A DNA stretch of 64,000 nt from a virus: the IMG/VR virus record IMGVR_UViG_3300021420_000021, positions 1 to 64,000 of that record. One strand, written 5' to 3'. The notes under the pieces were generated by a model. It was not told the origin of the DNA and searched no databases. It saw nothing but the letters and a program-made list of their open reading frames with translations. Position 1 is the first letter of the stretch, and each line of letters begins with the position of its first letter. This document shows, in pieces, positions 7,671 to 35,546 of this stretch. The position numbers and the translations under genes are program-made.

Positions 7671-7687
7671 CTGAACAAATTTACAAA

Positions 7688-16191: not shown

Positions 16192-16267
16192 ATTTTATAA
16201 CCTTACAGATTAATTACCTGTGAGCGGGGGCGCTTATCCGCCCCCAATTCTCGATAAGGAGAAAACA

Positions 16268-16828
16268 ATGTTTTATACATATCTTTGGCTTCGCGAAGAC
16301 GGAACGCCGTATTACGCAGGCAAAGGCACGGAATTTCGAGCCTATCAAAAACATCATAATCGTGTTGGTAAATGTCCACCTAAAGATAGAGTTATTCTTC
16401 AAGAATTCTTATCAGAAGCTGATGCATTTGAAGCAGAACAGTTCTTGATTTTATACTATGGCAGAAAAGATTTGGGAACAGGCTGTTTGATAAACATGTC
16501 TGATGGCGGCGAAGGATCGGCAGGATATATTCCAACTGAAGCAGCTAAACAAAAGAATAGGGCCGCGCATTTAGGTAAGAAACAATCAGAAGAAACTATC
16601 CAGAAACGTCGTGCTTCACTTAAAGGCGTAATTCGTACAGAAGAATGGCGAAAGAATATAGGTTTAGGAAATAAAGGGCGTAAATTTACTGACGCGCATA
16701 AAGAAAAATTAAGTAACGCAAAGCTAGGCAAGAAGCGTGCGCCTGTTTCTGATGAAACGAAGAGAAAGATGAGCGAAGCACGATTAGCCTATTTCGTGAG
16801 GAGAGCCGCCAGTGCCGCTGGATTATAG
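16268..16828 (+). CDS. GIY-YIG-type homing endonuclease with NUMOD3 repeats
   Basis: FYTYLW...PYYAGKG...E...LINMSDGGEG followed by SEETIQK / SDETKRKMSEA repeats; AAGGAG SD. Confidence 0.85.
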   Translation: MFYTYLWLREDGTPYYAGKGTEFRAYQKHHNRVGKCPPKDRVILQEFLSEADAFEAEQFLILYYGRKDLGTGCLINMSDGGEGSAGYIPTEAAKQKNRAAHLGKKQSEETIQKRRASLKGVIRTEEWRKNIGLGNKGRKFTDAHKEKLSNAKLGKKRAPVSDETKRKMSEARLAYFVRRAASAAGL

Positions 16829-17531
16829 AGATATAAGTATATTTATCACGAACAAAAACAGACTCGATGTCGGCTTTCGCGATCAAATAATTTGGTGGCT
16901 TGACACAAGCATGAAAGACATAACCGTGTTGGATAACGGTTCGACTTATCCGCCGCTGTTAAAATTTTACGATGAAATTAAAAACGAAGTAAAAATTATT
17001 TTCGTTCCGAATCTTGGCGAACGAGCACCTTGGGCGTTTTGGGATTTAGGTTATCGTGATCAATTCGAAGATCGCCATGTCATAATTAACGATTCAGATT
17101 GTTGTCCGGATAAAGATTGCCCGAAAGATTTGATTTCACAAATGTTGGCCGTTCTTGATGCGTATCCAGAATGTAAGAAAGTTTCAACGGGTTTACGAAT
17201 CGACAATCTTCCAGAACATTTTAAGTTTCGCGATAAAGTTATCGATGAAGAAGGATGGAATTGGAAAGATCGTGTAATTCCTGAAATTCTTGGATTGCCG
17301 AGATTATTTAACGCGCATACAGATACTTCGCTTACTCTCTATCGCAACTCTCAAACTGTATTGTGGACTGATCAACAATTTCGAACTGATTTTCCTTACG
17401 TATGTCAGCACTATCCGTGGTATAGTGATTCTCGCCCACTGATGAAGACGCATGAAGAAATGTTTTACTTAAAAAACTTGGCAGATGGATGGGCAAATTG
17501 GCAAAGTGAGAAACGCGATGCCTCGATATAG
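16812..17531 (+). CDS. Glycosyltransferase (GT-A fold, GT2-like)
   Basis: LDNGSTYPPLL, INDSDC, DTSLTLY, HYPWY. Confidence 0.8.
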   Translation: MPLDYRDISIFITNKNRLDVGFRDQIIWWLDTSMKDITVLDNGSTYPPLLKFYDEIKNEVKIIFVPNLGERAPWAFWDLGYRDQFEDRHVIINDSDCCPDKDCPKDLISQMLAVLDAYPECKKVSTGLRIDNLPEHFKFRDKVIDEEGWNWKDRVIPEILGLPRLFNAHTDTSLTLYRNSQTVLWTDQQFRTDFPYVCQHYPWYSDSRPLMKTHEEMFYLKNLADGWANWQSEKRDASI

Positions 17532-18096
17532 TATCATAACTCCCACTCTTGTGCGCCCTACATTGAAACGTTTGTGTGATTCAATTGATGCACAAACAAA
17601 TCAATCATGGGAACATATTATTATGGTTGATGTGCCGCTGGTGTTTGATAAGAATAAAAGTAACATCGTGGAGAGCATGTCGAACGATCCTCGGCGTAAA
17701 TTTTTTAGGTGCGGACAGCCGCATAAGAATTACGGCAACACTTGTCGATGGAATGCGTTTGATAAGGCGAGCGGTGATTATATTATTTATCTCGATGACG
17801 ATGATTATCTCGCAGACGATAAAGTTTTTGAAACATTAGAACAAGTGACAAAACTGTGGGCAATATTTCCGATCATGAGATGCGGAAATCTTTGGTTTTG
17901 CGACCCGCCCGGTATGTGTAAAACCGGATCGGGAATGTTTATCTACCGTCGCTTTCTCGGATTGAAATATCCTGACAACGATCATTACTGCGCTGATGGA
18001 GAACTTTGCGAACAGCTTAAAGCGTTTCCGTATCAGTCATTAGGACACGAAAGACCGCTGATGATCTATGAACAGCGCGGACTTGGGAGGGAATAA
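17518..18096 (+). CDS. Glycosyltransferase family 2
   Basis: YSIITPT...SIDAQT...ASGDYIIYLDDDD. Confidence 0.88.
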   Translation: MPRYSIITPTLVRPTLKRLCDSIDAQTNQSWEHIIMVDVPLVFDKNKSNIVESMSNDPRRKFFRCGQPHKNYGNTCRWNAFDKASGDYIIYLDDDDYLADDKVFETLEQVTKLWAIFPIMRCGNLWFCDPPGMCKTGSGMFIYRRFLGLKYPDNDHYCADGELCEQLKAFPYQSLGHERPLMIYEQRGLGRE

Positions 18097-18098
18097 TT

Positions 18099-18254
18099 AT
18101 GATTACAGCAATTGTTGGACTTGCTGCTTTTGCAGCCGGATACGCATTTCGTGGTTTGATTCACAAAGAGATTGTTGCTGTTGGCGCGGATGTTAAAGCC
18201 GCTGACGCAAAAGCTGACGCAAAAGCTGTCGCAGAAGTAAAAGCGAAGCTGTAG
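18099..18254 (+). CDS. Small membrane-anchored Ala/Lys-rich protein, 51 aa
   Basis: MITAIVGLAAFAAGYAFRGL...ADAKADAKAVAEVKAKL; GGAGG SD. Confidence 0.65.
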   Translation: MITAIVGLAAFAAGYAFRGLIHKEIVAVGADVKAADAKADAKAVAEVKAKL

Positions 18255-18266
18255 AAAGGAATTAGC

Positions 18267-18611
18267 ATGGCTTTAGTAAATGTTGCCGGAACACAAACCG
18301 GAGTAAATACAACTTCAGGTGTAAAGGGAATTACGCAGCAATATCAATTGTCCGGCAAGCAGTCAGCGACTATTGTGCCCGGAAACGGTCTTGGCGCTAA
18401 TATTATTGGAACAGTACCTCCGGGAAAAGCCGGAATTGTTCAGATTGATAATACGATTCAGAACTCGACTGATCCGCTTGTTTCCGGTCAATTAGCGACT
18501 AATCAAGCTGATAACTTTGCCGCGAGTACGACTGGTGTTGGACTTGTTCCGACAGTTAATTCCGCGCAACTTGAATCAGCCGGAAAATCAATGGCTCCGC
18601 AGACCGAGTAA
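18267..18611 (+). CDS. Hypothetical (possible virion) protein
   Basis: ORF track; AAGGG SD. Confidence 0.7.
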   Translation: MALVNVAGTQTGVNTTSGVKGITQQYQLSGKQSATIVPGNGLGANIIGTVPPGKAGIVQIDNTIQNSTDPLVSGQLATNQADNFAASTTGVGLVPTVNSAQLESAGKSMAPQTE

Positions 18612-18689
18612 AAGATTGAATTTTGCCGTAATTGCAACCTTCGGGCGATTCATGCACGGCAAGTTCTTAGAATAGGTAACGGAGACTAT

Positions 18690-19064
18690 GTGAAGTCCGA
18701 TCCTGTTTTGCTGAAGTGGTATCGTATTATTAACTCTAAATTTTTCCTTGGCGAATTACCTAATAGCGTTTGTGTTCGTTGGGTGAATGACGAAGATAAA
18801 GAAGAAGAAAAACGGTGTGAAGATAAATATTTTGGATGGGCCGAAGAAGGCGAAACGAGTAGACATAAATATGAGATTGTATTGAGTAGAAAAAAGAACA
18901 CATCTCTTTCTGCCAAACTTTGTACTCTTGCTCATGAATGTTGCCACATTGCCACACAATTGAAAGATGATCACGGCCCTGCATTTGAAGCGCAGCGACA
19001 AAAAATAGCAGATCGAGGAATATTTAAAAAAGGAGCACTCGCCAAAAACATTACGCTCTTTTAA
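18690..19064 (+). CDS. SprT-like zinc metalloprotease
   Basis: INSKFFLGELP...TLAHECCH...HGPAF. Confidence 0.8.
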   Translation: MKSDPVLLKWYRIINSKFFLGELPNSVCVRWVNDEDKEEEKRCEDKYFGWAEEGETSRHKYEIVLSRKKNTSLSAKLCTLAHECCHIATQLKDDHGPAFEAQRQKIADRGIFKKGALAKNITLF

Positions 19065-19076
19065 TTTGGAGGAGAT

Positions 19077-19367
19077 GTGACAAAGATTAAGCGCGAGCGC
19101 GAAGACAAACCGACACGCTTTCTGAAAAACTTCATCCGAACTTATCTAAAGAAGAATCGCGATATTCCGCCTTCGATTATTGTAATGTTGTTAGATCGAT
19201 TGGCGCTTCTTGATGGATTATACAAAGTAGAATTAACTCCGCGCCGGACGACGACAGGACCGGGAAAAACAGAATCTGAGCAAATACCTGAAGTAGAAAT
19301 AGACATCGATAAAATGCTTGAGCGAGGAGCCGCGAATGCAGCAGATAATTCAGAAGCCAATGGTTGA
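19077..19367 (+). CDS. Hypothetical protein
   Basis: GGAGG SD. Confidence 0.65.
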   Translation: MTKIKREREDKPTRFLKNFIRTYLKKNRDIPPSIIVMLLDRLALLDGLYKVELTPRRTTTGPGKTESEQIPEVEIDIDKMLERGAANAADNSEANG

Positions 19368-19539
19368 CGGTTTCGCTAAAGTTTGGACGCATAAAGGTCT
19401 TGCAATTTTTCTCGATGATGTTCACAAACAATTTGCTTTAGACTTTAGTAACGTAATGTTAAATAATTTCATTCAACAACAAGCGCAAGCTGCGGCGAAA
19501 GCGGCAGAATTGAAGAAGATCGTCGTTGTGGAGGATTAA
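19336..19539 (+). CDS. Hypothetical protein
   Basis: GAGGAG SD before MQQIIQ. Confidence 0.6.
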   Translation: MQQIIQKPMVDGFAKVWTHKGLAIFLDDVHKQFALDFSNVMLNNFIQQQAQAAAKAAELKKIVVVED

Positions 19540-19689
19540 ATGAATAAAACTCAGTATGCGCAAAGAACTTTTACTTATCCGGCATCAGAAAAAACTTCGC
19601 AACTTCAGTGGGATTTCGCATTTCTTGAACGCGAGGAATTCGAAGAGAAGTGGGGCCAAAAGAAGTACACAGAGATGAGTAAACAATAA
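19540..19689 (+). CDS. Hypothetical protein, 49 aa
   Basis: MNKTQYAQRTFTYP...; GGAGG SD; coupled on both sides. Confidence 0.6.
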   Translation: MNKTQYAQRTFTYPASEKTSQLQWDFAFLEREEFEEKWGQKKYTEMSKQ

Positions 19690-19979
19690 TGCTACCGGAT
19701 CAGATTAACGTTGCCGCGCAAGAAAAACAAGCGTCTCAAGAAGGTTATATTCATCGTGTTCTCGTCGCGTTAGATCAATTTGTCAATGTCATATTTCGCG
19801 GACGACCTGATGAGACAATATCTGCTCGTTCTTATCGCGCTGCGCTTGAAGGTAAACTTTGGGGCCGAGCGATGAATGCGTTTCTTAATGTATTCCAGAG
19901 TAATCACGGCGCAAAAGCAGCCGCAGGAGATTTGTATAGGTCGCAATCAATCGACGCAACTGAAACGAAAATATTGTAA
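19689..19979 (+). CDS. Conserved phage protein (LDQxxN...PDETISAR motif)
   Basis: Recognisable phage family motif. Confidence 0.7.
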   Translation: MLPDQINVAAQEKQASQEGYIHRVLVALDQFVNVIFRGRPDETISARSYRAALEGKLWGRAMNAFLNVFQSNHGAKAAAGDLYRSQSIDATETKIL

Positions 19980-20494
19980 TGGCGTACAAGATAATTTTAC
20001 ATGAGATTATAGATCGCCTTTATGTCGGTGATGAAGAAGCTATCGATCTTGCCGAAAAGCGCGGATATTCGATTTTAGCCGCGTGTAAAGATGGCAGTCC
20101 TGATTGTCATCGTGCCGTTCTCGGATACACAACATTGGCAGCGCCAAAAGATAAAAATTATTACTTTATACAAAGTGATAAAGATCACATGGCGCTTAAT
20201 TTGATCGACGTAGATGATCCTGATCTTATTCCTGATACTGTTATTGATGCAGGATTGAAGTTCATGAAAGACCGCTATGACGCAGGTAAAACGATTTTAG
20301 TACATTGTATTGCTGGTCATTCGCGTAGTCCTTCAATGATGCTCATGTTTTTAAGATCGATAGGCGAAATGCCCGAAGGTTTTATTCGTGCCGAAAAAAA
20401 ATTCCGCACTCTTTATCCGCCTTATGATCCCGGCGTCGGAATGCGAGCGCACGCAAGAACGCGATGGGATGAATTGAAAGACAAATACTTATGA
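19979..20494 (+). CDS. Dual-specificity protein phosphatase
   Basis: LYVG, ILVHCIAGHSRS (CX5R). Confidence 0.88.
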   Translation: MAYKIILHEIIDRLYVGDEEAIDLAEKRGYSILAACKDGSPDCHRAVLGYTTLAAPKDKNYYFIQSDKDHMALNLIDVDDPDLIPDTVIDAGLKFMKDRYDAGKTILVHCIAGHSRSPSMMLMFLRSIGEMPEGFIRAEKKFRTLYPPYDPGVGMRAHARTRWDELKDKYL

Positions 20495-21156
20495 GCGTAC
20501 TTGATAAACTAGCTGATGCAGCAACTAAGATGGGGCAGAAAGTCGCAACAGCGCCTTCGAATGAAGCTGCCGCGATTAAAAATAAGACAGACGCAGTAAA
20601 AGAATATCAAGACGCAGTTGCTGATAAGCCGATAGTTCCGAAAGCTACGCCGCCTTCTGTCAATCCGAATAAAGTTGATCCGAAATCACAATATGGAACG
20701 CGACCGGGCGAGCAGCGAATTAGCGATTCTGAAATTAAAGATATGTCACGACCGCTCGGGTCGTTTAAGAAAGGTACGAATTACGTACCGCATACAGGTG
20801 TAGCACTCCTTCATAAAGGAGAAGCAGTAATTCCGGCGAAGGAGAATAAAATGGATTCAACCTACGATATGGTTAAGGGCATGGCAAAAGACAAGCCGCC
20901 CAAGAAAGAAATTAAAGAAATGGTGCATACAAAGTCGCATAATGGAAAGCATATTGTGACTCATAAGCATCATAGTCCGGCACATCACCCGGACGAGACT
21001 CATGTTATGAATGACATGGCCGAGCTTCATTCGCACATGGAAGACCACGCTGGAAGCCCCAACGAAGGCGAAGCCGCACCAGCCGCTGATGGTTCTGCTC
21101 CGGCACAGATGACAGCCGCGCCGTCTCCGGCACCGATGGCCGCTCCGGGGGCTTAA
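20491..21156 (+). CDS. His-rich protein with FxxGTxYVP...LHKGE motif
   Basis: ORF track; motif shared with the next gene. Confidence 0.75.
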   Translation: MSVLDKLADAATKMGQKVATAPSNEAAAIKNKTDAVKEYQDAVADKPIVPKATPPSVNPNKVDPKSQYGTRPGEQRISDSEIKDMSRPLGSFKKGTNYVPHTGVALLHKGEAVIPAKENKMDSTYDMVKGMAKDKPPKKEIKEMVHTKSHNGKHIVTHKHHSPAHHPDETHVMNDMAELHSHMEDHAGSPNEGEAAPAADGSAPAQMTAAPSPAPMAAPGA

Positions 21157-21704
21157 TGGCTGACGATAAGTCTCGCGGAGCACCCGCTGATTTTAGTGGC
21201 AGAGTAATCCCGAATCCGAAGAATATTAAACCTGTTCTTGATACAGACATAAAAGCGAATCCGAAAGATAAATCGGACCCTAAGCCGCCACACGGATTTG
21301 CTTATTACGCCGAGCCGTATCACCCTAAAGATGAGCCTGTTAAGAAAAATATTGATAACGCGCCACTTGAGAATTCGTCAATCCCCGGCCCGATTAGATC
21401 GTTTAAACATGGAACTGATTACGTTCCCGAAACAGGCATAGCGATTCTTCATAAAGGCGAGAAAGTAATTCCGAAGGAAAATAATATGAGTGAACACAGC
21501 CCAGAAGAGAAAGCGCACTTTCATAGAGCGATGAGTAAGCTACACGGCGGGGCGCTCCATAAGCATTTTGGTATCGCAGAAGATAAACCGATACCGATGG
21601 AAAAGAAACAAGAAGCAGCGAATTCGGATAATCCGCATGTCGCAGCTATGGGCCGAATGGCGGTCGCGATGCACGGATGGTCGCATAAGGGTTCGAAGAA
21701 GTAA
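21156..21704 (+). CDS. Protein with FxxGTxYVP...LHKGE motif
   Basis: ORF track; motif shared with the previous gene. Confidence 0.75.
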   Translation: MADDKSRGAPADFSGRVIPNPKNIKPVLDTDIKANPKDKSDPKPPHGFAYYAEPYHPKDEPVKKNIDNAPLENSSIPGPIRSFKHGTDYVPETGIAILHKGEKVIPKENNMSEHSPEEKAHFHRAMSKLHGGALHKHFGIAEDKPIPMEKKQEAANSDNPHVAAMGRMAVAMHGWSHKGSKK

Positions 21705-21719
21705 CGAAAGGATTTTATT

Positions 21720-21995
21720 ATGGCAGACAGAGAAACTTGCGCGGGAAGTTATCCGGGCGCAAAGAATATGGGATTGAGTTTGAAGCGTGCGGGAAGTTCG
21801 TATGTCGAGTGTACAGGTGAAATGGGCGCAGCGGGCGAAAGTCCGAAAGTTCCTAAAGGACATAAATTTAGCCCGTCTGGTACTTCGCGTAAGGGAAGTA
21901 CATCGGGCGAGAGCTATTCTCCTTATGCGCCGACCGCACCAGACGATTACAAAGGCGGGGTCGGAACAGGCCAAGGTAAAGGTTCTCAGGGTTAA
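21720..21995 (+). CDS. Gly/Ser-rich hypothetical protein
   Basis: AAGGA SD. Confidence 0.65.
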   Translation: MADRETCAGSYPGAKNMGLSLKRAGSSYVECTGEMGAAGESPKVPKGHKFSPSGTSRKGSTSGESYSPYAPTAPDDYKGGVGTGQGKGSQG

Positions 21996-22012
21996 TTAGT
22001 GTTGGGGGAGAA

Positions 22013-24034
22013 GTGAAAGTAACAGAGTTAGAAGTGTTAGTTAAGTTTGCAAGAACAGAACATCCTAACTATCAATTCAAGAATATGCCAGACGAAGAGT
22101 TTGACAAGCTGGCAAAACAGAGTTGGGATAGACTTTCTTCGGACCATAAGAAGAAAGTTTCTGCGACTTGTCATGCTGCCAAAGTATTGATTGATGATCA
22201 GCCGGAAACAGCAATTCTTGTAAGGCGTGCGCGGTTTCTTGCACAAACTAACTTATTTTTTCTCTGTCATCTTCTTGAACGCTATAAAGATGCATCGCTG
22301 AAGACGTATACATGGATCGATGGTTCGATCCATAATACACATGAAGAAATTTGTAATGAATTCTTTGTGCGTAAAGACCCGACTAAAGTTTCATTCAAAT
22401 CTTTTGCTAAAGACTATATCGATAAGAAAGAACGATTGTTACTTGTCCCACGAGGCGGCTTTAAGTCTTCTATGGACATGGCAGATGTTATCCAGTACAT
22501 AATCTGCTTCCCCGAGGTAACGATTATGATTTTGACCGGAGTTCTTGATCTGGCAAAAGACTTCGTAAAAGAAATCAAAGGTCATTTTACACTTGAAGAC
22601 GGCGAAATAGAACAAGAGAATCTGTTCCAAACGAAGAAAGCTATTAAGCCGAAGCAAATGGCTGATGGCTCTTACAATCTTTTTCAAGTCTTATTTCCCG
22701 AGCATTGCATTCCGGCAGAAGAAGGTAAATCGTGCGAGTATCAAACTCCTGCTGTTTCAATGGTCGAGAAAGAATGTACTGTTTTCGCTGCATCGATTGA
22801 TCAGAACTTATCAGGTTGGCACGTCGGAGTTTTGAAACTTGATGACGTTGTAACGAACGAGAATAGTCGAACTGTCGAACGAATTAAGAACGTCAATCGC
22901 CAAGTCAGTATTCATAACGCCATGCTTCATCCGTATGGATTTTACGACAAGATTGGCACTTGGTACGATTCTGAAGATACTTACGGACAGACGATTCGCT
23001 ATGTCGCGAAGTGCGAAAAAGATGGCGAAGACGTAAAGACGAAAGTATATATTCGCGCCGCTTGGTGGCCGAATGAAGCCGCTCGTAAGGCAGGTAAAGT
23101 CGAAGAAGAGATGGTCGAGTCAGATTGGGACTTCTGGTTTAATGAAGAAGGCCAGTTGACTTATAAATTTCTTCGCGGCAAGAAACTTGAAGACGCTGAA
23201 GGTTTCGCGATCAAATATTTGAATGATCCGACTCAGGCGCACAGAATTAAATTTCCTCGCGAACTTCTTATACGCCGTACAATTCCTTCGAATATGCTTC
23301 CGCAACAAGGAATGATCGTAACCACAGTAGATACGGCGTATTCAACTAAGAGTTGGGCCGACTATACGGTCATTCTGACTTCTCTTATTTACGGTGGGCG
23401 TTTTTATATCATCGACATGAAACGTGGGCGATATAACGAATACGAACTTCCCGGACTAATCGCGGCAAATGCTTTGCAGTGGAAGCCGAAACGAATTTGC
23501 ATTGAAGATTCTGTCGGCGTTAAGTGGCTCGGACGTGAAGTTTATCGCGAAATGGATCGATTGAAGATTCGAGTTCCGATTGAATTCGTTCCACTCGGTC
23601 AAGGTAATAAAAGTAACGCCAAGAACATGAAAGCGAAACCTGTTCTTAGACTCTTAGGCGATGAACGATTATTATTCGCGAATCAATGTGTCGGTCTTGA
23701 AGAATTATATAACGAATTAGAGAAATTTGATACGGCGGCTTCAACACATGATGATATAGTTTCTGCATTATCGATTCTTGTAGATCAATTTTCGAGTTAT
23801 GCAGAAATGGAAGGAAAGATGTCGTCTGTTGCTCCAGACTTTTGTACAGATATAAAAATGAAGCAACAGTACGACCATATTTACGGCGCGGGTGTTTTCG
23901 AAAAGATGGTCGCGCAAAAGAATTTTGAATCATCGTTAGATCATCCGGACTTATCCGGAGTAGAAGCGATGAAAGCCGCGCAGCAAGAAGCGGCGCAAGA
24001 TTACGATCCGTTACAAGAAGCAGGTTTGTGGTAG
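22013..24034 (+). CDS. terL: Terminase large subunit
   Basis: PRGGFKSS Walker A, LKLDDVV Walker B, IGTWY, VDTAYS and HDDIVSA nuclease motifs. Confidence 0.92.
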   Translation: MKVTELEVLVKFARTEHPNYQFKNMPDEEFDKLAKQSWDRLSSDHKKKVSATCHAAKVLIDDQPETAILVRRARFLAQTNLFFLCHLLERYKDASLKTYTWIDGSIHNTHEEICNEFFVRKDPTKVSFKSFAKDYIDKKERLLLVPRGGFKSSMDMADVIQYIICFPEVTIMILTGVLDLAKDFVKEIKGHFTLEDGEIEQENLFQTKKAIKPKQMADGSYNLFQVLFPEHCIPAEEGKSCEYQTPAVSMVEKECTVFAASIDQNLSGWHVGVLKLDDVVTNENSRTVERIKNVNRQVSIHNAMLHPYGFYDKIGTWYDSEDTYGQTIRYVAKCEKDGEDVKTKVYIRAAWWPNEAARKAGKVEEEMVESDWDFWFNEEGQLTYKFLRGKKLEDAEGFAIKYLNDPTQAHRIKFPRELLIRRTIPSNMLPQQGMIVTTVDTAYSTKSWADYTVILTSLIYGGRFYIIDMKRGRYNEYELPGLIAANALQWKPKRICIEDSVGVKWLGREVYREMDRLKIRVPIEFVPLGQGNKSNAKNMKAKPVLRLLGDERLLFANQCVGLEELYNELEKFDTAASTHDDIVSALSILVDQFSSYAEMEGKMSSVAPDFCTDIKMKQQYDHIYGAGVFEKMVAQKNFESSLDHPDLSGVEAMKAAQQEAAQDYDPLQEAGLW

Positions 24035-24046
24035 GAAGGACAACCA

Positions 24047-26179: not shown

Positions 26180-26263
26180 AAGTTGATTAGCACTTTGCTA
26201 GTCCGTGATTAGGGCGGCACGAAACAAAACCGCCCACTTATTCTGGCCTGAATGCAGGAGATA

Positions 26264-27244: not shown

Positions 27245-27252
27245 GAGGAGAA

Positions 27253-27591: not shown

Positions 27592-27599
27592 GAGGATAT

Positions 27600-27827
27600 T
27601 TGAAGCCGACAATAGGACAAATTGTAATTTATCATCCGCTTCCAGACGATGAAGACGGCTGTCAACCAAACGGGGCAGTTAAAGATTTGCCAGCGATTAT
27701 TGTCGCAGTTTGGTCAGATACGTATCTTAATTTGAAAGTTATAACTGATGGGCTGAAAGATACTTGGGTTACATCTGTCTCTGAAGGAACCGGGCCGCGC
27801 AATTGGTCTTGGCCTGAAAGAATTTAA
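27600..27827 (+). CDS. Conserved small phage protein (PTIGQIV...PAII...WSWP)
   Basis: Family motif; AGGAGG SD. Confidence 0.75.
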   Translation: MKPTIGQIVIYHPLPDDEDGCQPNGAVKDLPAIIVAVWSDTYLNLKVITDGLKDTWVTSVSEGTGPRNWSWPERI

Positions 27828-27851
27828 TAAACATTAGGAGGAGGAGAGTAA

Positions 27852-28805
27852 ATGTCAGAAGAAGTTATTGTACAAGATATAATCGAACCGGAAGTTCTGG
27901 CAGAAGTCGTAGTGCCTGAACCAGAATTAGAATACAGTTATCAGCCGACCGATGAATCCGGCAGAAGTATCGGCGGGCGACAAGTAATCAAGTATCGAAC
28001 GCCCGAAGAACTTGCCGATAAGATGAGAGATAATTCTGTTCATCTAATCCGCAAATTGCGCCAAGTCACGAAAGAAGCAAGACTTGGGCGCGGCGAAGAT
28101 TCGATTCCTGATGACGCAGAACGTTTTGCACAGCCCGTAGACTTCCAACCAAAACCATTGTCTGCTGGCGAACGTTATGCGATTTCACAAGATTTGAACG
28201 ACCCAGAGAAGTTCGAAGCGGCCCGCGACCGACTATTAGAGTCAGCAATTGGCGCTTCGCCCGAAGATTTACGTAAGACATTAAATCAGCAACAGATTAC
28301 GACGATGCAATTACTCGCCCGTCAAAATGCGGCGATCTTTATGGAAAAGCATCCGGAATTCTATTCTGTGACTGAAAATCTTGAAGTTTTGACGAATTGG
28401 ATGATCAAGAATAGGCTATCACCAACCGTCGCGAATTTTGAACGAGCCAATTCAACGATGACAGAAGCCGGATTGCTTTTGTCACCACCTATCGTGCGTG
28501 AGGTTGCTCCAACGGTGCAAACCGTGGAGAACACGGTTCCAAATGCGGAACCAGTCGCACCAGTCACTCGGATTAGTGATTCGGCGCAACCGCAACAACC
28601 AAGCCAACCTGCAAGAGTGCCTTCGGGCCTGAATTCTCGTGTTGCTTCTAACACCGGAGTCCAGCCGAATACGGGCGCACTTACATTGGCTGATATCGAC
28701 CGCATGTCTTCTGACGAGTACAAGCGGCGATTATTGACAGACCCGAAGTTTAGTGAGAATGTCGATAAGCTCGAAGCTACTCGTCCCGCGAAGGCACGGC
28801 GATAA
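27852..28805 (+). CDS. Capsid scaffolding protein
   Basis: Acidic/helical, Pro-rich linker, C-terminal IDRMSSDEY; immediately upstream of MCP. Confidence 0.75.
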   Translation: MSEEVIVQDIIEPEVLAEVVVPEPELEYSYQPTDESGRSIGGRQVIKYRTPEELADKMRDNSVHLIRKLRQVTKEARLGRGEDSIPDDAERFAQPVDFQPKPLSAGERYAISQDLNDPEKFEAARDRLLESAIGASPEDLRKTLNQQQITTMQLLARQNAAIFMEKHPEFYSVTENLEVLTNWMIKNRLSPTVANFERANSTMTEAGLLLSPPIVREVAPTVQTVENTVPNAEPVAPVTRISDSAQPQQPSQPARVPSGLNSRVASNTGVQPNTGALTLADIDRMSSDEYKRRLLTDPKFSENVDKLEATRPAKARR

Positions 28806-28817
28806 AGGTAAGAAACC

Positions 28818-29453
28818 TTGAGTTTTAGTCCTTCAGGGAATCAACTCTCTAACCTCCCGCAATCTACCGTAAAATTTTACGATAAAAAATTCCGGGAAAA
28901 TCTAAAGGCCCAGACGCCATTCGTGGCTTGCGCCGAACGTCTCAATTTGCCTACCAACTCTGGTAATCAATATGAGATGTTCATGTACGTCCCCTTAGCA
29001 GCCAACACCAATCAAACGACCGAAGGTACTGTCGGATCGTCTTTGAGTGCTAGCGTGCTAACAACCACGGCTACGATTGGTGAATATGCCGATTACGCTA
29101 ACTTCTCTTCGCTAAGTCTTGCAACTGCAATCGACAATACTGTCGAGAACGTCGCGAAGGAAATGTCTTATCGCCTTGGCGAAAGTCTGTCCGCTCTCGT
29201 TCGTGCAACTTGCGACGGCGCGAACAGCATCGATTCTAGCGTGCTGACTCAGTTGGCCGCGACTTCGACTTCGAGCTTTACCGCTCTGTCGTTGTCCCAG
29301 ATTCGAAATAGCGTCCAGTCACTTGCTGGCCGTTCTGTCCGTCCGTTCGATGAAGCGAGTAAGAGCTTCATCGGAGTCATCCATCCTTTCGCCCTTGGCG
29401 ATGTGTTGGCTGACAATAGCAACGATTCGCCTATCGATATCCTGAAGCACACT
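28818..29453 (+). CDS. Major capsid protein (N4-gp56-like), exon 1
   Basis: FYDKKFRENLKAQT, EG, ATIGEYADY, FIGVIHP; ends ...ILKHT at the 5' splice site. Confidence 0.88.
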
Positions 29454-29510
29454 TTAATTCTATTGGGGTGTGTATAAACTTAACTATATCGGGGAACATC
29501 AAGATTTCTC

Positions 29511-29539
29511 TTGACAATCCCGAGATAACTTCTTATAAT
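29511..29539 (+). promoter_or_regulatory. Consensus sigma70 promoter inside the intron core, upstream of the LAGLIDADG ORF
   Basis: TTGACA-17-TATAAT, exact consensus. Confidence 0.75.
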
Positions 29540-29549
29540 TAAGGAACAT

Positions 29550-30350
29550 ATGAAAGACCATTCTATAGCGTATATGGCGGGTCTGATTGATACAGATGGA
29601 ACTCTTGGTATTTATTACAAGGGCAATTCTGGATATCAGGCAAGTTTAGAATTTTACAACGATGATCAACAACTTATGAAATGGGTTGTTGAGCACTTTG
29701 GCGGGCAGTTTAAACCAAAGAAAGACCCAAGACGTGGGACTGTCGGATATCGATGGACTCCGCAAGGGCGTTTACACATGTGTAGAATTCTTGATACATT
29801 AATTCCTTTCCTTGTCTTAAAGAAATCTGAAGCATTGATCGTTCGTCGATTCTTGAGTATATCGGGAGAAGCCCCGGATTTACGAAAGTATCTGGCGAAC
29901 ACTTGCAGATTCATTAAAGGCAAAAGAAGCATCGTAGAGACTGATACGTTAAGAAGTCTCTTAACAAGAAAACCAAACTTAATTCAAGCATATGTTGCAG
30001 GGCTTATAGATGGCGACGGAAACATCGACACTTATGAGTCTAGCGTTGTGATTGGCTTTACTAATATGTGCTATTCGCTCATAGATGAGTTAGTTAAACT
30101 CTATGGCGGCGGATGGTATCAATGTAAGCCGACAACACGACGATGGCAACTTAGCGGAATGAAATTTCAAGAAGCATTTTTATTGAAGATCATTCCTTAT
30201 CTTGAACTAAAGAAGCAAAGAGCAAAGGATGCTCTTGAGTTTGTACGGAGTAAAATAAACATTCCGCGACAATTTGGAAGACCTTGTAAAGAACTTATGA
30301 TACAGTCCGATCTCATGGGCGACCATGAGTGCGATTCTAGTGGAAACTAG
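29550..30350 (+). CDS. Intron-encoded double-motif LAGLIDADG homing endonuclease
   Basis: YMAGLIDTDG and YVAGLIDGDG, each followed by a LxPxLxLK motif. Confidence 0.92.
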   Translation: MKDHSIAYMAGLIDTDGTLGIYYKGNSGYQASLEFYNDDQQLMKWVVEHFGGQFKPKKDPRRGTVGYRWTPQGRLHMCRILDTLIPFLVLKKSEALIVRRFLSISGEAPDLRKYLANTCRFIKGKRSIVETDTLRSLLTRKPNLIQAYVAGLIDGDGNIDTYESSVVIGFTNMCYSLIDELVKLYGGGWYQCKPTTRRWQLSGMKFQEAFLLKIIPYLELKKQRAKDALEFVRSKINIPRQFGRPCKELMIQSDLMGDHECDSSGN

Positions 30351-30368
30351 AAATCCTAAACAATAATA

Positions 30369-30764
30369 CCAGTTGGACAAGCTAAGATGGACGAACTCGT
30401 CTCGGTCGATTTGACCGAAGTTATCGAGTTGCCGTCTAGCGGAGTGCAATTCTTTCAGACTAACCTAGTCACTCAAAGTAACAATTACAAGTCTGTTGCT
30501 GGACTTGTAGGTCTTCGGACTTACATTTTTGGCAGAGACGGCGTATTTGCTATCAATCTAGGTGCAAAAGGCGACACTGGCTATGGTGATGGCGAGTGGC
30601 GGAATATAGAATGCAATATTATGCAGAACGTTGCACCGACCGTCGCGGACCCCGAAGGCCTCATACCGGGATGGACTTCTTACAGAGTTCATTTCACCAC
30701 GAGCCTCGGACCCGATACTACGATTCGGCAGAGACAAATTGATGCCGCTTCAGCCATAAGCTAA
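30369..30764 (+). CDS. Major capsid protein, exon 2 (spliced product ~343 aa)
   Basis: In frame with exon 1 (HT|PVGQAKMDE...); RTYIFG, DPEG...GWTSY motifs. Confidence 0.82.
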   Translation, partial: PVGQAKMDELVSVDLTEVIELPSSGVQFFQTNLVTQSNNYKSVAGLVGLRTYIFGRDGVFAINLGAKGDTGYGDGEWRNIECNIMQNVAPTVADPEGLIPGWTSYRVHFTTSLGPDTTIRQRQIDAASAIS

Positions 30765-30901
30765 ACAAAATAAAGGACTTAAATGTTCTTGACTTGTTTG
30801 ATGTTGTGTGGTAAAGTAGTACAGATGTAAATTTCGATAGGGGTAGGGTGCCGCAATCACCTTACCCTGATTCGATAGCTCTATTGCGGAGAGAAAATAA
30901 C

Positions 30902-31486
30902 ATGTTTGAAAAAGGCAATACTTTTAGTCAAGGCCGAAAAATTGGTTCGCACAGTGAACAAGAAATTCAAGCTTTAAAAGAACGCAATGCCGCCCGAAAG
31001 GGTCAACCTATCACATCTGAGAAAATGTTAGCCGCTTCGCGAGCGGGGTGCAAAGCAATGAACGCTGTTAGGCACTTAAAAGCAGGCCATATTTTAGAAA
31101 ATGTTGATTCTGTCGCCCTTACAGGTGATTGTCACATTTGTGGTCAAGTGCCGATTAAGGTAATGAAGCATAGAGCGAATGGCGCTTTACGCGATCAATA
31201 TTTATGTTGGGTTGGAACTCGTTGCAGAGAGACAGACGGAGCACCTGCCAAAGTCGCGTATAAGAATCAAGCATTAGAGATGTGGAACAATCAACATGGC
31301 AATTGTGCTTTGTGTTACAAATACATGGTTCGCGCAGGAAACACCAACGAAGGTGCAACGTTAGATCATTGTCACACGACCGGATTTATACGCGGCTTTA
31401 TTCATCAAGGCTGCAATAAAGGTTTGGGTCACTTTTTAGACGACCCTGAAGTTTTAAAAATGGCTGCTGAGTATTTACTTAGATAG
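30902..31486 (+). CDS. Endonuclease VII-family (HNH) homing endonuclease
   Basis: QHGNCALC...LDHCHTTGFIRGFIHQGCNKGLG; own promoter TTGACT-17-TAAAGT at 30789-30817. Confidence 0.85.
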   Translation: MFEKGNTFSQGRKIGSHSEQEIQALKERNAARKGQPITSEKMLAASRAGCKAMNAVRHLKAGHILENVDSVALTGDCHICGQVPIKVMKHRANGALRDQYLCWVGTRCRETDGAPAKVAYKNQALEMWNNQHGNCALCYKYMVRAGNTNEGATLDHCHTTGFIRGFIHQGCNKGLGHFLDDPEVLKMAAEYLLR

Positions 31487-31506
31487 CCGGAAAAGGAACA
31501 TGAATT

Positions 31507-32730
31507 ATGCCTATCCCCGCACAAACAACGGGTCTTGGAACCGCCGTCGCAGTCACGTTGGCGGGAACTGGAGTCATACAGGAAAAGACACCTGTTGCTG
31601 GAACTCAAGGAATTTCGCACTACAATGTAACTCTGTCTTTGTCCGGGACCGGATTTCCGAGCACTGTCGCGGTCAGTGCTTCGACCATTGACGTTGCTGG
31701 AAACGTCGTTAGTAATGGCGGCGCTTCAGGATCGACGCAATTGGGCGCAGCCGCCGCAGCTTATGCTATTCTTGCCGCTGCTGGAATTACTAATACTGGC
31801 GCGACTGTCATTTCTGGCGGAAATATCGGTTCGTATCCGACTGCAACTGAAACCGGATTTACCGGGGCAAATTTTGTTCCTCCGGCGACGACTGATAACG
31901 CTGATGCACAAGCAGGACTCGCCGCCGCTTTGGTAACATATAACGCGCTATCGGCTTTGACTTTTACGTCTTTGTCCGCGTCTTCGGCCAATTTAAGCAC
32001 TCTTGGTAACGGAAGTACAGCTTCGACTTATACCGCAGGTAATTATTCTGCTGGCACAAGTATGGACATTCCGACGAGTATTACTCTTGACGCGCAAGGT
32101 AATCCCGGCGCGGTATTTATATTTAAAGCCGGATCGACACTGACTCTCGAATCTAACGCGTCTGTTCTTCTTGTCAACGGCGCTCAAGCCGCGAACGTTT
32201 ATTGGCTGGTCGGTAGTTCATTTACTTCGATCTTTGGAACTGTGTCCGTCATGAACGGAAATATTCTTGCCAATACAAGTATTACTCTTGGCGGTGGCGT
32301 CCTGAATGGCCGAGCGCTCGCCGGAATTGTGACTTCATCTGGCGCAGTTACAATTGCGACTGCCGAAGCAATTACAGTTCCCGGATTTTCGCAAAGCACA
32401 GCTTCAGGAATGAACGCAGTTAGTTATAATGCATGGCCGCGTTTGGTTGGCGGCGTTACACAGACTCGCGATGGTGTGACTCGTAATGCGCAAGATGTCA
32501 CTGTTTCTTATCCGGCTCCGACTTCAGGTCCGGGCGGCGTTGCTGATGTGTCAGATGTCAATAATCCATTCCTTGTTACCGCGTATCGTGTCGGTCAAGC
32601 GTGGGTCGAATTCTTTTCTCCAACTTTCGGAAATTCCGAACCATTGGCGACAGATATTGAGTCGAATTTGACCGAAGGTTTTCCGACCGATAAGATACAG
32701 GCCCAACTTTTAGTAAACGTCGTGAAGTAG
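31507..32730 (+). CDS. Putative capsid decoration protein with inserted DUF3494 ice-binding-like domain
   Basis: YAILAAAGITNTG...ITLDAQGNPGAVFIFKAGSTL...NGAQAANVYWLVGSS...GNILANTSITL...LNGRALA; flanks paralogous to the next two genes. Confidence 0.88.
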   Translation: MPIPAQTTGLGTAVAVTLAGTGVIQEKTPVAGTQGISHYNVTLSLSGTGFPSTVAVSASTIDVAGNVVSNGGASGSTQLGAAAAAYAILAAAGITNTGATVISGGNIGSYPTATETGFTGANFVPPATTDNADAQAGLAAALVTYNALSALTFTSLSASSANLSTLGNGSTASTYTAGNYSAGTSMDIPTSITLDAQGNPGAVFIFKAGSTLTLESNASVLLVNGAQAANVYWLVGSSFTSIFGTVSVMNGNILANTSITLGGGVLNGRALAGIVTSSGAVTIATAEAITVPGFSQSTASGMNAVSYNAWPRLVGGVTQTRDGVTRNAQDVTVSYPAPTSGPGGVADVSDVNNPFLVTAYRVGQAWVEFFSPTFGNSEPLATDIESNLTEGFPTDKIQAQLLVNVVK

Positions 32731-32749
32731 TTTAAAGAAAAGAGAAATC

Positions 32750-33307
32750 ATGTCTAATCCAGTTCCTCCCCATAATCCTACTGACGGATTGTCGTCTGCG
32801 TGTTTTGTGCAGCTATCAGGCACAGGCGTTATTGTCGATCCGAAGCAGACAAGACCGCCGTCTGCTAATTACCCAAATGCAGGACATTATGAAGTTACTT
32901 TGAGTGTTTCTGGCGCAAATGGTTTAGCGTCTTCTGTCGTTATAACACCATCACTTGTTGATGTGTCTAATACAGCGTATGCTTCGACTGCTGCGTCTTG
33001 GGTTTATCGGTCGTATAACGATCCTCAAGTAACCGAAGCAAGTCTTCCAACAGGACCGGGAAATCCGACTAATCTTGCGCCGAAGCCGACGCAGACTGCG
33101 AAACTTGCGTCTGTTAGCGCATCTGGAGCATCAACAGTAACCGTCACTGCGCTGTCTCCGGGCAAAGCAATTGTATCCGCAATTTACCCCACCTTCGATA
33201 ACGCAGAAGGAAATGTTACAGTTGGCAATCTTGGCGGACCCTTGGCCGGAACTACAGTGCCGAAAGATTATATTTTTTCATTTCTCGATGTAAAAATATT
33301 TCCGTAA
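32750..33307 (+). CDS. Putative decoration protein (Ig-like), paralog 2
   Basis: Shares LSGTG, HYxVTLSxSG, DVxN, VTAxxxGxA and PTFxN with 31507..32730. Confidence 0.7.
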   Translation: MSNPVPPHNPTDGLSSACFVQLSGTGVIVDPKQTRPPSANYPNAGHYEVTLSVSGANGLASSVVITPSLVDVSNTAYASTAASWVYRSYNDPQVTEASLPTGPGNPTNLAPKPTQTAKLASVSASGASTVTVTALSPGKAIVSAIYPTFDNAEGNVTVGNLGGPLAGTTVPKDYIFSFLDVKIFP

Positions 33308-33325
33308 ATTTAGCAGAAAGGTATT

Positions 33326-33913
33326 ATGCCGCCTCTTTTTCCAAGTTCGCAGAACAGCTTAAATTATACAACGGGCGTAGGAATTCCGGCCCGAGTTGCC
33401 CTTAGTGGGACCGCAGCCGGAGGTAATAGTGTGACACAGCAACAGTCCGCCACGATTGACGGAACTTCGTATGTTGTTCTTCAAATGCGTGGTCCTGAAT
33501 ACTATCTTCTGATGACTTTGCCGTCTGATACGTGTCAATTGAGTGCCGGGATTGTAGATGTCGCTGGCAATGCGAGCACGGTTGATGCGAGTAATACGTT
33601 TACTTATACATCGTGGAACGCGAGTTCGGTCGTATTATCGATGTCGAATACTGGAAGTGCATCAGGATCGGAGTTCGTATCTTTTTCTGCCGCAAATATG
33701 GGTACAGGCTGGATGCCTTCGAATCTGGCATGGGAAAGTAAAGTTGTAACTATCTCTTCGTCTGGTTTGATTACTGCGAACGCAAAAGGCCATGCGGTAG
33801 TGGAGTGTCGCTACCCCTTAAGTAAAGCATCGAACAATCCCGTTACGAATGGTTTAAATACGACAGACAACCCACAATTTATTGCGGCATTGCTTGTAAT
33901 TCGAGTCAATTAA
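33326..33913 (+). CDS. Putative decoration protein (Ig-like, Big_2-type motif), paralog 3
   Basis: VVTISSSGLITANAKGHAVV; same flanking motifs. Confidence 0.7.
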   Translation: MPPLFPSSQNSLNYTTGVGIPARVALSGTAAGGNSVTQQQSATIDGTSYVVLQMRGPEYYLLMTLPSDTCQLSAGIVDVAGNASTVDASNTFTYTSWNASSVVLSMSNTGSASGSEFVSFSAANMGTGWMPSNLAWESKVVTISSSGLITANAKGHAVVECRYPLSKASNNPVTNGLNTTDNPQFIAALLVIRVN

Positions 33914-33939
33914 TTATACATGATATAATAGGAGGAACT

Positions 33940-34257
33940 ATGTCTGATGATCGGAACTATATTGCTAGTTTAGAAGAGGCGCTCGAAGATATCACTGAAG
34001 ATAATCTTAGATTGCGCAACACAAACAGAATTCTCCGGGCCGTAAATTCAGGACTTCGGTCGAAACTTGAAATCGCGCATAAGAACGACGAAGAGTTTGT
34101 TTCGGCGTGTCAATGGGATGAAGAAATCGACGCTCGCGCCGCACAAATTGATTCAGAATCTGACTCGACAGGATATGTCGAGTATGTCGAAGAGAAATCT
34201 GACTATCCGCAAGGATTTCAAGAATATTGGGGAATTGGCAACACAAGTTATACGTAA
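33940..34257 (+). CDS. Acidic coiled-coil protein
   Basis: AGGAGG SD. Confidence 0.7.
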   Translation: MSDDRNYIASLEEALEDITEDNLRLRNTNRILRAVNSGLRSKLEIAHKNDEEFVSACQWDEEIDARAAQIDSESDSTGYVEYVEEKSDYPQGFQEYWGIGNTSYT

Positions 34258-34260
34258 TTA

Positions 34261-34432
34261 AGTGAACAAGGTTAAGAAAAAGTGGATTACTATTTCTTAG
34301 TCTAATCGGACGGACGGTCTAGAACGACCGCGAGATGTTAGTCGTTGTTGCGCCTGATCCGCGCAAAGAGACGCTGATTTCACTAGTGCAAGGGCTTCTC
34401 TGGGAGCCTGAACCGGAGGAGCACAAGCACTA
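34261..34432 (+). ncRNA. Candidate structured ncRNA
   Basis: Six nested stems in an intergenic gap (see findings). Confidence 0.45.
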
Positions 34433-34453
34433 CAATTTAAACGGAGGAGGAAA

Positions 34454-34933
34454 ATGAAGTTACTAAACCGTATTAGAACTTGGTTGCTTTATAAGTTATG
34501 GAAGCCAAAGGATAAATCACCCGAAGAACTAGAGTTTGCGAGAGAAAAAGGTAAGATTTTAACTCAGCAAAAACAATGGGATGATCAAAGACATGTCGGA
34601 TGTTCACACCTTAAAGGCGGGAATGTAGGGAACGTGTTTGGCGGCGATTTCAGTAAGTTTGCCCAAGGTTGGTATAACGGACAAAATGGGCAATACGCAG
34701 TAATCAAGCATCAGATGGCGAATGGCGATATTTATGTAAACTGTTTACGATGCGGTAAGAAGTGGAAAAAGCCAATAAGATCGTCATTTAAGAAAGAACA
34801 AGATTACTTAATAGCTCTTGCAGAGTACGAAACTGCTGTGAAGTTTCCTACGAATAATAGCATGTCTACATCGATTCAATTACGATTTTCTGACAATGGC
34901 GAAGCGCATCGTAAAGCGATAGAGAATAGTTAA
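34454..34933 (+). CDS. Putative Zn-binding protein, paralog of 36202..36843
   Basis: CSHLKGGNV...QYAVIKHQ...CLRCGK. Confidence 0.75.
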   Translation: MKLLNRIRTWLLYKLWKPKDKSPEELEFAREKGKILTQQKQWDDQRHVGCSHLKGGNVGNVFGGDFSKFAQGWYNGQNGQYAVIKHQMANGDIYVNCLRCGKKWKKPIRSSFKKEQDYLIALAEYETAVKFPTNNSMSTSIQLRFSDNGEAHRKAIENS

Positions 34934-35006
34934 ATTTCGCAGTGTCATGAACTGTGAACGGGCGATAGCCTTCTACTATCGCCCACTCTTTAGAAGGGAG
35001 AGAAGT

Positions 35007-35546
35007 ATGCGAATTGAAACAAACATAAGAAGCATTAAAGATTTATCCAACATGAAATTTGGTAGATTGATACCGATTATGCCTATTGCAAAAGATAGGT
35101 TTAATAAGACGATATGGCTAATGTTGTGCGATTGCGGCAAGACAAAAGCTATAAACAGCGCAAATTTGAGTTCAAAACATACTCAGAGTTGCGGGTGTTT
35201 ACGCGATGAGTGTCAGTCTGCGCTTAAACATGGTGCTAGTTGTCGCGGTAAGATAACGCCTGAGTATCAAGCTTTTAGAGCGGCGAAAGAACGCTGTACT
35301 AACCCAAAGAATAAAGCATATAAATATTATGGCGGAAGAGGAATCGAGTTTCGTTTTGTTAGTTTTGAAGAGTTTTTTGCGGAGATAGGTTTACGACCCG
35401 ACGCGATGTCGCTAGATAGGATTGAGGTAAACGGGCATTATGAAAAAGGGAATGTTCGTTGGGCGACTCAAAGTCAGCAAGTACAAAATCGTAGATCACA
35501 GCCTGAAATTCTTTTACAGTATGCGGCAGCATTAGGAGGAGTGTGA
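35007..35546 (+). CDS. HNH-like homing endonuclease
   Basis: KFGRL...CDCG...SCGC...YYGGRGI...SLDRIEVNGHYEKGNVRWAT. Confidence 0.85.
   Translation: MRIETNIRSIKDLSNMKFGRLIPIMPIAKDRFNKTIWLMLCDCGKTKAINSANLSSKHTQSCGCLRDECQSALKHGASCRGKITPEYQAFRAAKERCTNPKNKAYKYYGGRGIEFRFVSFEEFFAEIGLRPDAMSLDRIEVNGHYEKGNVRWATQSQQVQNRRSQPEILLQYAAALGGV

Follow-up and report, generated by a model that had tools for sequence, protein, structure and literature searches.

A conserved leader with loop–Shine–Dalgarno complementarity precedes homing endonuclease genes in uncultured soil phages

Introduction

How does a phage express a homing endonuclease enough for it to spread and too little for it to harm its carrier? To our knowledge, the control of free-standing cassettes has been described mainly in the T-even phages. 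The question arises three times in IMG/VR record IMGVR_UViG_3300021420_000021, an uncultured soil phage of 94,266 bp (estimated completeness 99%, GC content 44.5%), of which the first 64 kb (64,000 nucleotides) form the window analyzed here. Genes for a GIY-YIG, an Endonuclease VII-type (EndoVII) and an HNH endonuclease all lie co-directionally within structural gene clusters, that is, inside late operons, where an initial annotation made from the sequence had placed them. Each gene is preceded by a leader in which a hairpin, H1, carries a 6–7-nt loop that is the exact complement of sequence at the Shine–Dalgarno (SD) motif. We think it fairly probable that these leaders all derive from a single modular, cis-acting family of mRNA elements, and that its role is to damp the translation of free-standing homing endonuclease cassettes on abundant late polycistronic mRNA. 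The same annotation had called the three genes unrelated; they do represent three families, but only two superfamilies, HNH and EndoVII being separate families of what we take to be one His-Me-finger superfamily. Below, G000 denotes the phage under study, G001 a distant relative and G002 a complete phage of 109,724 bp.

Three leaders share one architecture

The leaders of the three genes are laid out alike (Table 1). The stem, loop and SD-side complement that the initial annotation had assigned to each are all present base for base, as are the upstream hairpins ending in CTGTGA that it had reported for two of them. Minimum free energy (MFE) folds give H1 together with this upstream hairpin, which we call H0, in leaders 1 and 3, and also predict a small third hairpin, H2. 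The 3′ arm of H2 consists of SD purines (GAGAA, AGAG and GAGAG), its 5′ arm of linker pyrimidines, and its loop is the exact complement of the H1 loop. H0 starts 10 nt past the upstream stop codon (16189–16191) in leader 1, where its loop contains the 6-nt palindromes ATTAAT and TAATTA, and 2 nt past the stop codon at 34931–34933 in leader 3, where the loop contains TCATGA. An 8-nt direct repeat, TTCGATAG, flanks H1 of leader 2 (30831–30838 and 30870–30877).

A strict descriptor (stem of at least 7 bp, whole 6–7-nt loop complementary to sequence within 20 nt, start codon 5–14 nt further on), run on both strands of the whole 94-kb genome, picked out the three leader sites and no others. In forty dinucleotide-matched simulated genomes, the mean was 0.45 sites per genome. 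This enrichment within one genome is modest, suggestive rather than decisive; the decisive support comes from covariation in relatives.

Loop–Shine–Dalgarno pairing is conserved while its sequence changes

The three leaders belong to a larger family of leaders of about 70–100 nt in uncultured soil and peat phages. IMG/VR homologs of the GIY-YIG gene have the same architecture with other loops, each matched by its own SD flank: CCATTCA/TGAATGG, CCGATT/AATCGG, CCTCAAT/ATTGAGG, CCTTAA/TTAAGG, CCTATCA/TGATAGG, CCTAGAA/TTCTAGG and CTATGAA/TTCATAG. Loop–SD pairing is kept across about 18 or more distinct loop sequences. The EndoVII leaders of G000 and G001, syntenic after the head gene, have the loops CCGCAAT and CCTTAC, respectively, each with its own complement.

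Because these homolog copies had been found by requiring the pairing, three further tests were not conditioned on it. Among distinct regions upstream of GIY-YIG genes of the MFYTY type (those starting MFYTY; the N-terminus of the G000 protein, MFYTYLWLREDGTP, recurs in many IMG/VR homologs), 14 of 19 have a whole-loop complement at the SD flank. A covariance model built on H0, H1 and H2, and thus blind to the pseudoknot, found eight copies in G002, seven of them with a perfect 6–7-nt complement at the SD. Finally, a scan of IMG/VR with the commonest H1 stem alone (GGGAGGTG-N6-7-CACCTCC) gave 156 strand-specific contexts; a full 6–7-nt loop complement lies within 38 nt in 26 of them, and all 26 complements abut an SD and start codon. 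In opposite-strand contexts and beside unrelated hairpins, no complement was longer than 5 nt.

Base pairs were counted on a register-clean subset of 14 leaders (A5), in which the HNH leader row was shifted by one column; a MAFFT alignment of 18 leaders and the H2 region of a model-fitted alignment (A4) were poorly registered and were left out of the counts. In the loop–SD helix, 98.8% of cells are paired and six of seven pairs change on both sides, whereas slid registers are 52–61% paired and none of 500 shuffles matched the observed values. As in an H-type pseudoknot, the loop thus pairs with a strand 3′ of its own hairpin, and compensatory change supports the pairing. H0 covaries as well (97% paired, five of seven pairs compensatory), as do a lower extension of H1 (H1′) and H2 (CCT/AGG, ATCT/AGAT, AATTCT/AGAATT, TTCCCT/AGGGAA). 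RNAalifold predicted H0, H1′ and H1 de novo, and did not predict H2. Because G–U pairs occur in every helix and the complementarity is strand-specific, the structure resides in sense-strand RNA.

The initial proposal of a shared motif that keeps its pairing while its sequences change is borne out by the covariation and by the three unconditioned tests. Complementarity between loop and SD in homologs, on which that proposal had been staked beforehand, is conserved, including in the sets unselected for pairing.

Two further features of the family concern the hairpins themselves. The commonest H1 in relatives (L003:2952–2974, L014:2955–2977) pairs GGGAGGUG with CACCUCCC, an extended SD against a copy of the 16S anti-SD. 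The resemblance is not universal (GGCGGGTG, GGGCAGCG and the three stems of the window differ) and, judged from these sequences, may reflect ancestry rather than function. In H0, loops fall into a class of 4 nt (TAGC, TTGC) and a longer class. Among 18 distinct H0 loops of at least 7 nt, 15 contain a 6-nt palindrome (TAATTA, TCATGA, TTATAA, TGATCA or TTCGAA), often in a 2+6+1 layout within a 9-nt loop; shuffling the loop letters gave a mean of 1.8 and a maximum of 8. Palindromes occur in the window (16209–16217, 34944–34950) and at L002, L007, L015, L018, L038, L070, L115, L146, L147, L153 and L185, and may permit RNA dimerization.

Table 1. Coordinates of the leaders, the nuclease genes behind them and associated features in the window
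Feature	Position	Strand	Details
Leader 1 (GIY-YIG), H0	16202–16224	+	CTTACAG / loop ATTAATTAC / CTGTGAG; MFE fold
Leader 1, H1	16226–16245	+	7-bp GC stem; GGGGGCG 16226–16232, loop CTTATC 16233–16238, CGCCCCC 16239–16245
Leader 1, linker and SD	16246–16263	+	AATTCTC, complement GATAAG 16253–16258, GAGAA; ATG 16268
Leader 1, H2	16248–16252; 16259–16263	+	TTCTC pairable with GAGAA
GIY-YIG / NUMOD3 homing endonuclease gene	16268–16828	+	186 aa; phrog_314
Promoter match	30789–30817	+	sigma-70-like, TTGACT-17-TAAAGT with TG; upstream of leader 2 H1; consensus match only
Leader 2 (EndoVII), H1 stem	30840–30868	+	10–11 bp; loop CCGCAAT 30851–30857
Leader 2, H1 arms	30841–30850; 30858–30867	+	GGGTAGGGTG; CACCTTACCC; one G–U pair
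Leader 2, linker and SD	30869–30893	+	CTCT 30879–30882, complement ATTGCGG 30883–30889, AGAG 30890–30893; ATG 30902; H2 is CTCT/AGAG
Endonuclease VII-type gene	30902–31486	+	194 aa; PF02945 Endonuclease_7
Leader 3 (HNH), H0	34936–34958	+	TTCGCAGT / loop GTCATGA / ACTGTGAA
Leader 3, H1	34960–34984	+	9-bp stem; GGGCGATAG 34960–34968, loop CCTTCTA 34969–34975, CTATCGCCC 34976–34984
Leader 3, linker and SD	34985–35002	+	ACTCTT, complement TAGAAGG 34991–34997, GAGAG; ATG 35007; H2 is CTCTT/GAGAG
HNH endonuclease gene	35007–35546	+	179 aa; phrog_374 (E 2e-49)
Possible fourth, atypical copy	55347–55401	+	13-bp stem, loop CCTAAAG, TTTAGG-AGG 55386–55394, ATG 55399

A pseudoknot could mask the Shine–Dalgarno motif

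Within this conserved structure of the sense-strand RNA, complementarity between H1 loop and SD flank is maintained, and from this we infer that the SD is masked and nuclease translation consequently low. In the mechanism that we favor, the SD leaving RNA polymerase would be caught by the preformed H1 loop, yielding an H-type pseudoknot with a first stem (S1, formed by H1) of about 8 bp, a second (S2, the loop–SD helix) of 6–7 bp stacked on H1, and loops L1 of 0–1 nt and L3 of about 10 nt. The remaining SD purines would alternatively be held by linker pyrimidines in the local H2. Either way, at least half of the SD would be hidden, 30S binding would be rare and only traces of nuclease would be made; H0 and H1 probably also shield the site from ribosomes terminating just upstream.

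The dimensions of the leaders largely suit such a fold. The median H1 stem has 8 bp (range 7–13) and the median H1 loop 7 nt (6–8), and S2 has 7 bp (6–8). The loop complement runs into the first G residues of the GGAGG-type SD and stops 7 nt (5–12) short of the start codon. The linker L3, with a median of 10 nt (6–14), is adequate for an H-type pseudoknot over an S1 of 8 bp. Upstream, the first pair of H0 follows the preceding stop codon by a median of 5.5 nt (2–116), and by no more than 10 nt in 32 of 42 cases. Median energies are −13.8 kcal/mol for H1, −7.3 for the S2 duplex, −2.8 for the local H2 and −9.3 for SD:anti-SD pairing. The H-type architecture named in the initial annotation therefore stands as far as the covarying loop–SD helix and a compatible L3 are concerned, and was incomplete in that it missed H2, the lower H1 extension and H0 as a conserved third module.

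Several observations weigh against masking as we have described it. The S2 duplex is no stronger than the SD:anti-SD duplex with which it would compete. In a nested, pseudoknot-free model, opening positions −16 to +4 costs 7.3, 5.3 and 5.8 kcal/mol for the three genes against a genome median of 6.35 (ranks 51, 81 and 72 of 131, over a crude set of background gene starts), which is average closure for a ribosome-binding site (RBS). Any special masking would consequently depend wholly on the loop–SD pseudoknot pairing. That pairing is itself sterically tight in places: when the whole loop pairs, L1 is 0 nt, and some copies combine an H1 of 10–13 bp with a 6-nt linker. Moreover, H1 (or its lower stem) and H2 are separated by 0–3 nt in many copies, and because so little is left between the hairpins, helix-length reasoning makes it impossible for H1, S2 and H2 to form all at once. 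By this reasoning, which is not a three-dimensional model, H2 and H1′ must be alternatives to the pseudoknot, since both use the linker. H2 is also weak, with 3–6 bp over the 3′ SD purines and only 3 bp in many copies. The association with nucleases has exceptions in both directions. One or two copies precede genes not recognizable as nucleases (331 aa in G002; 143 aa at 55399), and two nuclease genes of G000 have no leader: an HNH gene at 8775–9338, on the other strand and with promoter-like sequence, and an intron-encoded LAGLIDADG open reading frame (ORF). One of two readings of the overlapping pairings is a redundant lock, in which the pseudoknot masks the 5′ half of the SD and H2 the 3′ half; the other is a true two-state switch.

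Were the leader to act by masking, it would be a compact, sequence-programmable RNA module that accepts any 6–7-nt loop with a matching SD flank, and a natural design for tuning the translation of toxic genes. It recurs in dozens of uncultured phages from soil and peat, in front of five or more nuclease families, and gives a marker by which nuclease cassettes and the positions where they begin can be located in metagenomic phage genomes.

Alternative explanations

Pairings that compete and loops that are palindromic hint that the leader does more than occlude the SD, and they are the basis of a reading that we hold unlikely but worth weighing: a two-state switch in which a three-hairpin form (H0, extended H1 and H2) interconverts with the pseudoknot and an input gates nuclease translation. 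Each of the two forms is backed by covarying pairs, although the two need the same linker; in both leader subtypes, the alternative pairings add up to roughly the base-pair count of S2, and the operator of Escherichia coli rpsO provides a precedent for a hairpin–pseudoknot equilibrium. Candidate inputs are ribosomes terminating 2–10 nt upstream, temperature, a phage protein and RNA–RNA dimerization via H0; the short gaps in 32 of 42 cases place H0 within reach of a terminating ribosome, and the excess of palindromes in long H0 loops also speaks for such a device. Both states, however, hide part of the SD, which leaves no clear ON state; no candidate effector was found, H2 is often 3 bp, has a low median stability and is absent from the RNAalifold prediction, and the steric incompatibility is argued rather than modeled. 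An extension of the switch, which we offer as speculation and consider rather unlikely, is a portable bistable device whose linker toggles between closing the lower H1 and H2 and freeing the SD flank for the H1 loop. The choice would be set by ribosomes terminating upstream, and H0 palindromes would dimerize leaders of different nuclease mRNAs, in which case H1 and H2 loops could kiss in trans. Such a device would be a mobile-element-borne translational insulator and switch, pluggable by any nuclease module.

The hairpins might instead serve processing, stability or insulation, marking an RNase site or protecting the upstream late mRNA at its 3′ end and the cassette at its 5′ end, with loop–SD pairing secondary and the inserted cassette kept from disturbing its host operon. 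The leader always starts just past the upstream stop codon, H1 is very stable, H0 and H1 persist in a G002 copy whose ORF and loop complement have decayed, and T4 cassettes are shaped by the need to spare neighboring genes (PMC2988022). We nevertheless judge this account quite improbable: it leaves unexplained a perfect loop complement that falls always on the SD through some 18 or more sequence changes, H1 is not followed by a T-run, none of the three leaders appears in the terminator scan, and one RNA contig passes through leader 2 without a break, even if contigs do not reveal transcript ends. Chance, or an inverted repeat acting in DNA as a protein operator, recombination site or nuclease target, could draw on the modest within-genome enrichment (three sites against 0.45 expected) and on palindromic H0 loops, which could be DNA sites. 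Sequence that varies while complementarity stays is the opposite of what a protein operator would show, and G–T (G–U) pairs in all helices, a loop complement confined to the coding strand and a fixed position relative to SD and start codon make this explanation very improbable indeed. Damping of nuclease translation through the loop–SD pairing remains the reading that we prefer.

Comparison with known systems

RBS-sequestering structures limit translation of I-TevI, I-TevII, I-TevIII, segB and Aeh1 mobE on long transcripts, and several T4 seg and mob genes have no promoter of their own and depend on promoters farther upstream (PMC2988022). The leader described here likewise is a cis structure at the RBS of a homing endonuclease ORF on long phage transcripts, with the same presumed purpose of low or delayed nuclease translation. 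In T-even phages, a single stable hairpin holds the SD in its stem and is relieved by an internal late or middle promoter that gives a shorter transcript. In our leaders, by contrast, contact with the SD is made by the apical loop of another hairpin, in pseudoknot topology, with a weak local H2 in addition, and the whole is a conserved multi-hairpin family that stands in front of five or more nuclease families. These leaders lack a very stable local stem with the SD inside it: H2 has 3–6 bp with a median of −2.8 kcal/mol, and RBS opening is average. As for a promoter that would remove an inhibitory 5′ arm, the sole sigma-70-like site at the three leaders (Table 1) lies upstream of H1, and the phage's own late promoters may differ from sigma-70. 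The 'unusual hairpin' published immediately 5′ of the RBS of seg43(25) of Aeromonas phage 25 has the loop GATAAA without an SD complement and is not this motif.

H-type pseudoknots that hide an SD occur in E. coli rpsO (S15), where a two-hairpin form competes with the pseudoknot, and in the preQ1-II and SAM-II riboswitches; in each, a loop pairs with a downstream strand that includes the SD. Unlike these, the leader has no evident conserved ligand- or protein-binding core, its pairing sequence is free to vary, and it is tied to mobile nuclease cassettes rather than to housekeeping operons. Kissing loops with fully complementary loops of 6–7 nt are known from ColE1 RNA I/RNA II and TAR–TAR*, and the HIV-1 DIS loop dimerizes. 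The H1 and H2 loops of the leader are similarly exact 6–7-nt complements, and many H0 loops resemble DIS in having 9 nt, a central 6-nt palindrome and the 2+6+1 layout of a dimerization loop. An intramolecular kissing complex with both stems intact looks sterically impossible, by the same reasoning from the 0–3 nt that join H1 and H2.

In a search of the whole window against Rfam 15 at gathering thresholds, only a permuted tmRNA elsewhere was found and none of the leaders matched; E-value scans of leader-containing loci and of stretches of the window also gave nothing on leaders. int-alpA (RF02996, gathering score 35.8 bits) is likewise a small structured leader that occurs in phages and mobile elements, but its model has no match at E ≤10 in G000 and G002, which together hold 11–12 leaders. 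Our literature searches found no description of this leader. We regard it as a variant of the control by RBS masking that is already known for homing endonucleases of phages, and Rfam does not catalog it.

Leader 2 lies on RNA continuous with the capsid message

The soil metatranscriptome that contains the phage is represented by contigs, which show neither transcript ends nor levels. One RNA contig, at depth 22, covers the splice junction of the head protein gene, at which 29453 is followed by 30369, and continues over leader 2 and the EndoVII ORF as far as 31411. Since this contig spans the junction through to the EndoVII ORF, leader 2 and its gene lie on RNA continuous with mature capsid mRNA, which agrees with a nuclease riding on an abundant late message. 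Contig depth was 2.5 in the GIY-YIG bin and 0.47 in the HNH bin, and contigs are unsuited to ranking expression.

Sigma-70-like matches in the scan were not enriched over shuffles (41 versus 34.9 ± 6.2), and none lies between H1 and the SD in the three leaders. For comparison with the match upstream of leader 2 (Table 1), the orthologous leader of G001 has TGGTATAAT. Long gaps between the upstream stop codon and H0 contain promoter matches of the TTGACA/TGnTATAAT type, as in leader 2. Because this gap is mostly no more than 10 nt and promoter matches fall in the long gaps, most leader cassettes are probably promoter-less and read through from the upstream gene. An intrinsic terminator was rejected as an explanation of H1: the sequences that follow it (AATTCTC, TGATTCG, ACTCTTT) contain no T-run, and the three sites are absent from the terminator scan.

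Genes behind the leader and their mobility

The leader had been proposed to precede different nuclease families, and this extends well past the window: the 48 distinct leader-bearing ORFs are nearly all nucleases, namely MFYTY GIY-YIG/NUMOD3 proteins (some of them extended by an N-terminal zinc finger), SegE-like GIY-YIG, MUG113, Endonuclease VII and HNH, and a few short or truncated ORFs had no match. A 331-aa protein in G002 (L116:1578–2570 = L161:6479–7471) stands behind a perfect leader with loop CCATTC and complement GAATGG, and is either a new nuclease type or non-nuclease cargo under the same control. The atypical element at 55347–55401 in the window scored 17.5 bits (E 0.11) with the covariance model and lies 3′ of the gene for a 1,382-aa virion-type protein; the gene behind it encodes 143 aa of unknown family, and the G001 ortholog has a plain promoter-like leader instead, so that membership of this element in the family is uncertain. 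Neither the 331-aa nor the 143-aa protein matched Pfam, PHROG or PDB sequences. A covariance-model match at 30164–30258, inside the LAGLIDADG ORF, was taken as spurious.

The further suggestion that the leader travels with its nucleases is only partly upheld. In its favor, the leader begins directly behind the upstream stop codon, where the 5′ edge of a cassette would be expected, and a remnant without an ORF survives. On the other side, leader subtype tracks phage lineage at least as much as nuclease family, and homologs of the GIY-YIG protein in cultured phages (Synechococcus S-SRM01 and S-N03; Rhizobium RHph_X2_25 and TM3_3_14B; Sinorhizobium NV1.1.1) have no leader. GenBank phages queried at the DNA level with the window and with a type-A leader gave no match. 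A nuclease-free junction, sought among relatives of the gene that precedes the GIY-YIG cassette, was not found; when five related records were compared at the DNA level, the match was confined to the nuclease gene, and G001 proteins, at 30–55% amino acid identity to those of the phage, are too diverged for setting cassette borders.

The remnant is the eighth copy in G002 (L114:1500–1842, at G002:55451–55792), in which H0 and H1 are intact, the SD flank has decayed and no ORF follows. A group I intron (RF00028, 54.2 bits) comes next, at L114:1629–1842, and the copy resembles what would remain, next to the intron, of a nuclease cassette since lost. At L015, sub-threshold group I intron matches (25–33 bits; 425–988 and 1835–2044) are located 5′ of a GIY-YIG gene that has the leader. 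In these phages, introns are clustered with free-standing nuclease cassettes.

Other features of the window

The EndoVII gene follows immediately on the second exon of the gene for the major head protein (phrog_1357), and the stop codon of the HNH gene overlaps the start of the next ORF (35543). The head protein gene is split into exons at 28818–29453 and 30369–30764 by a 915-nt intervening sequence (29454–30368) that encodes the LAGLIDADG-type ORF (29550–30350); in G001, the head protein is a single unsplit ORF of 347 aa. The intervening sequence is spliced in nature, because the exact joint of 29453 to 30369 is present on RNA contigs from two runs and absent from the DNA run. The Rfam group I intron model had no match on 29454–30368 even at E ≤10.

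The phage also encodes a circularly permuted tmRNA at 7428–7676 on the minus strand (RF04321, 52.7 bits; gathering score 47), which hints at a host with a two-piece tmRNA, such as an alphaproteobacterium.

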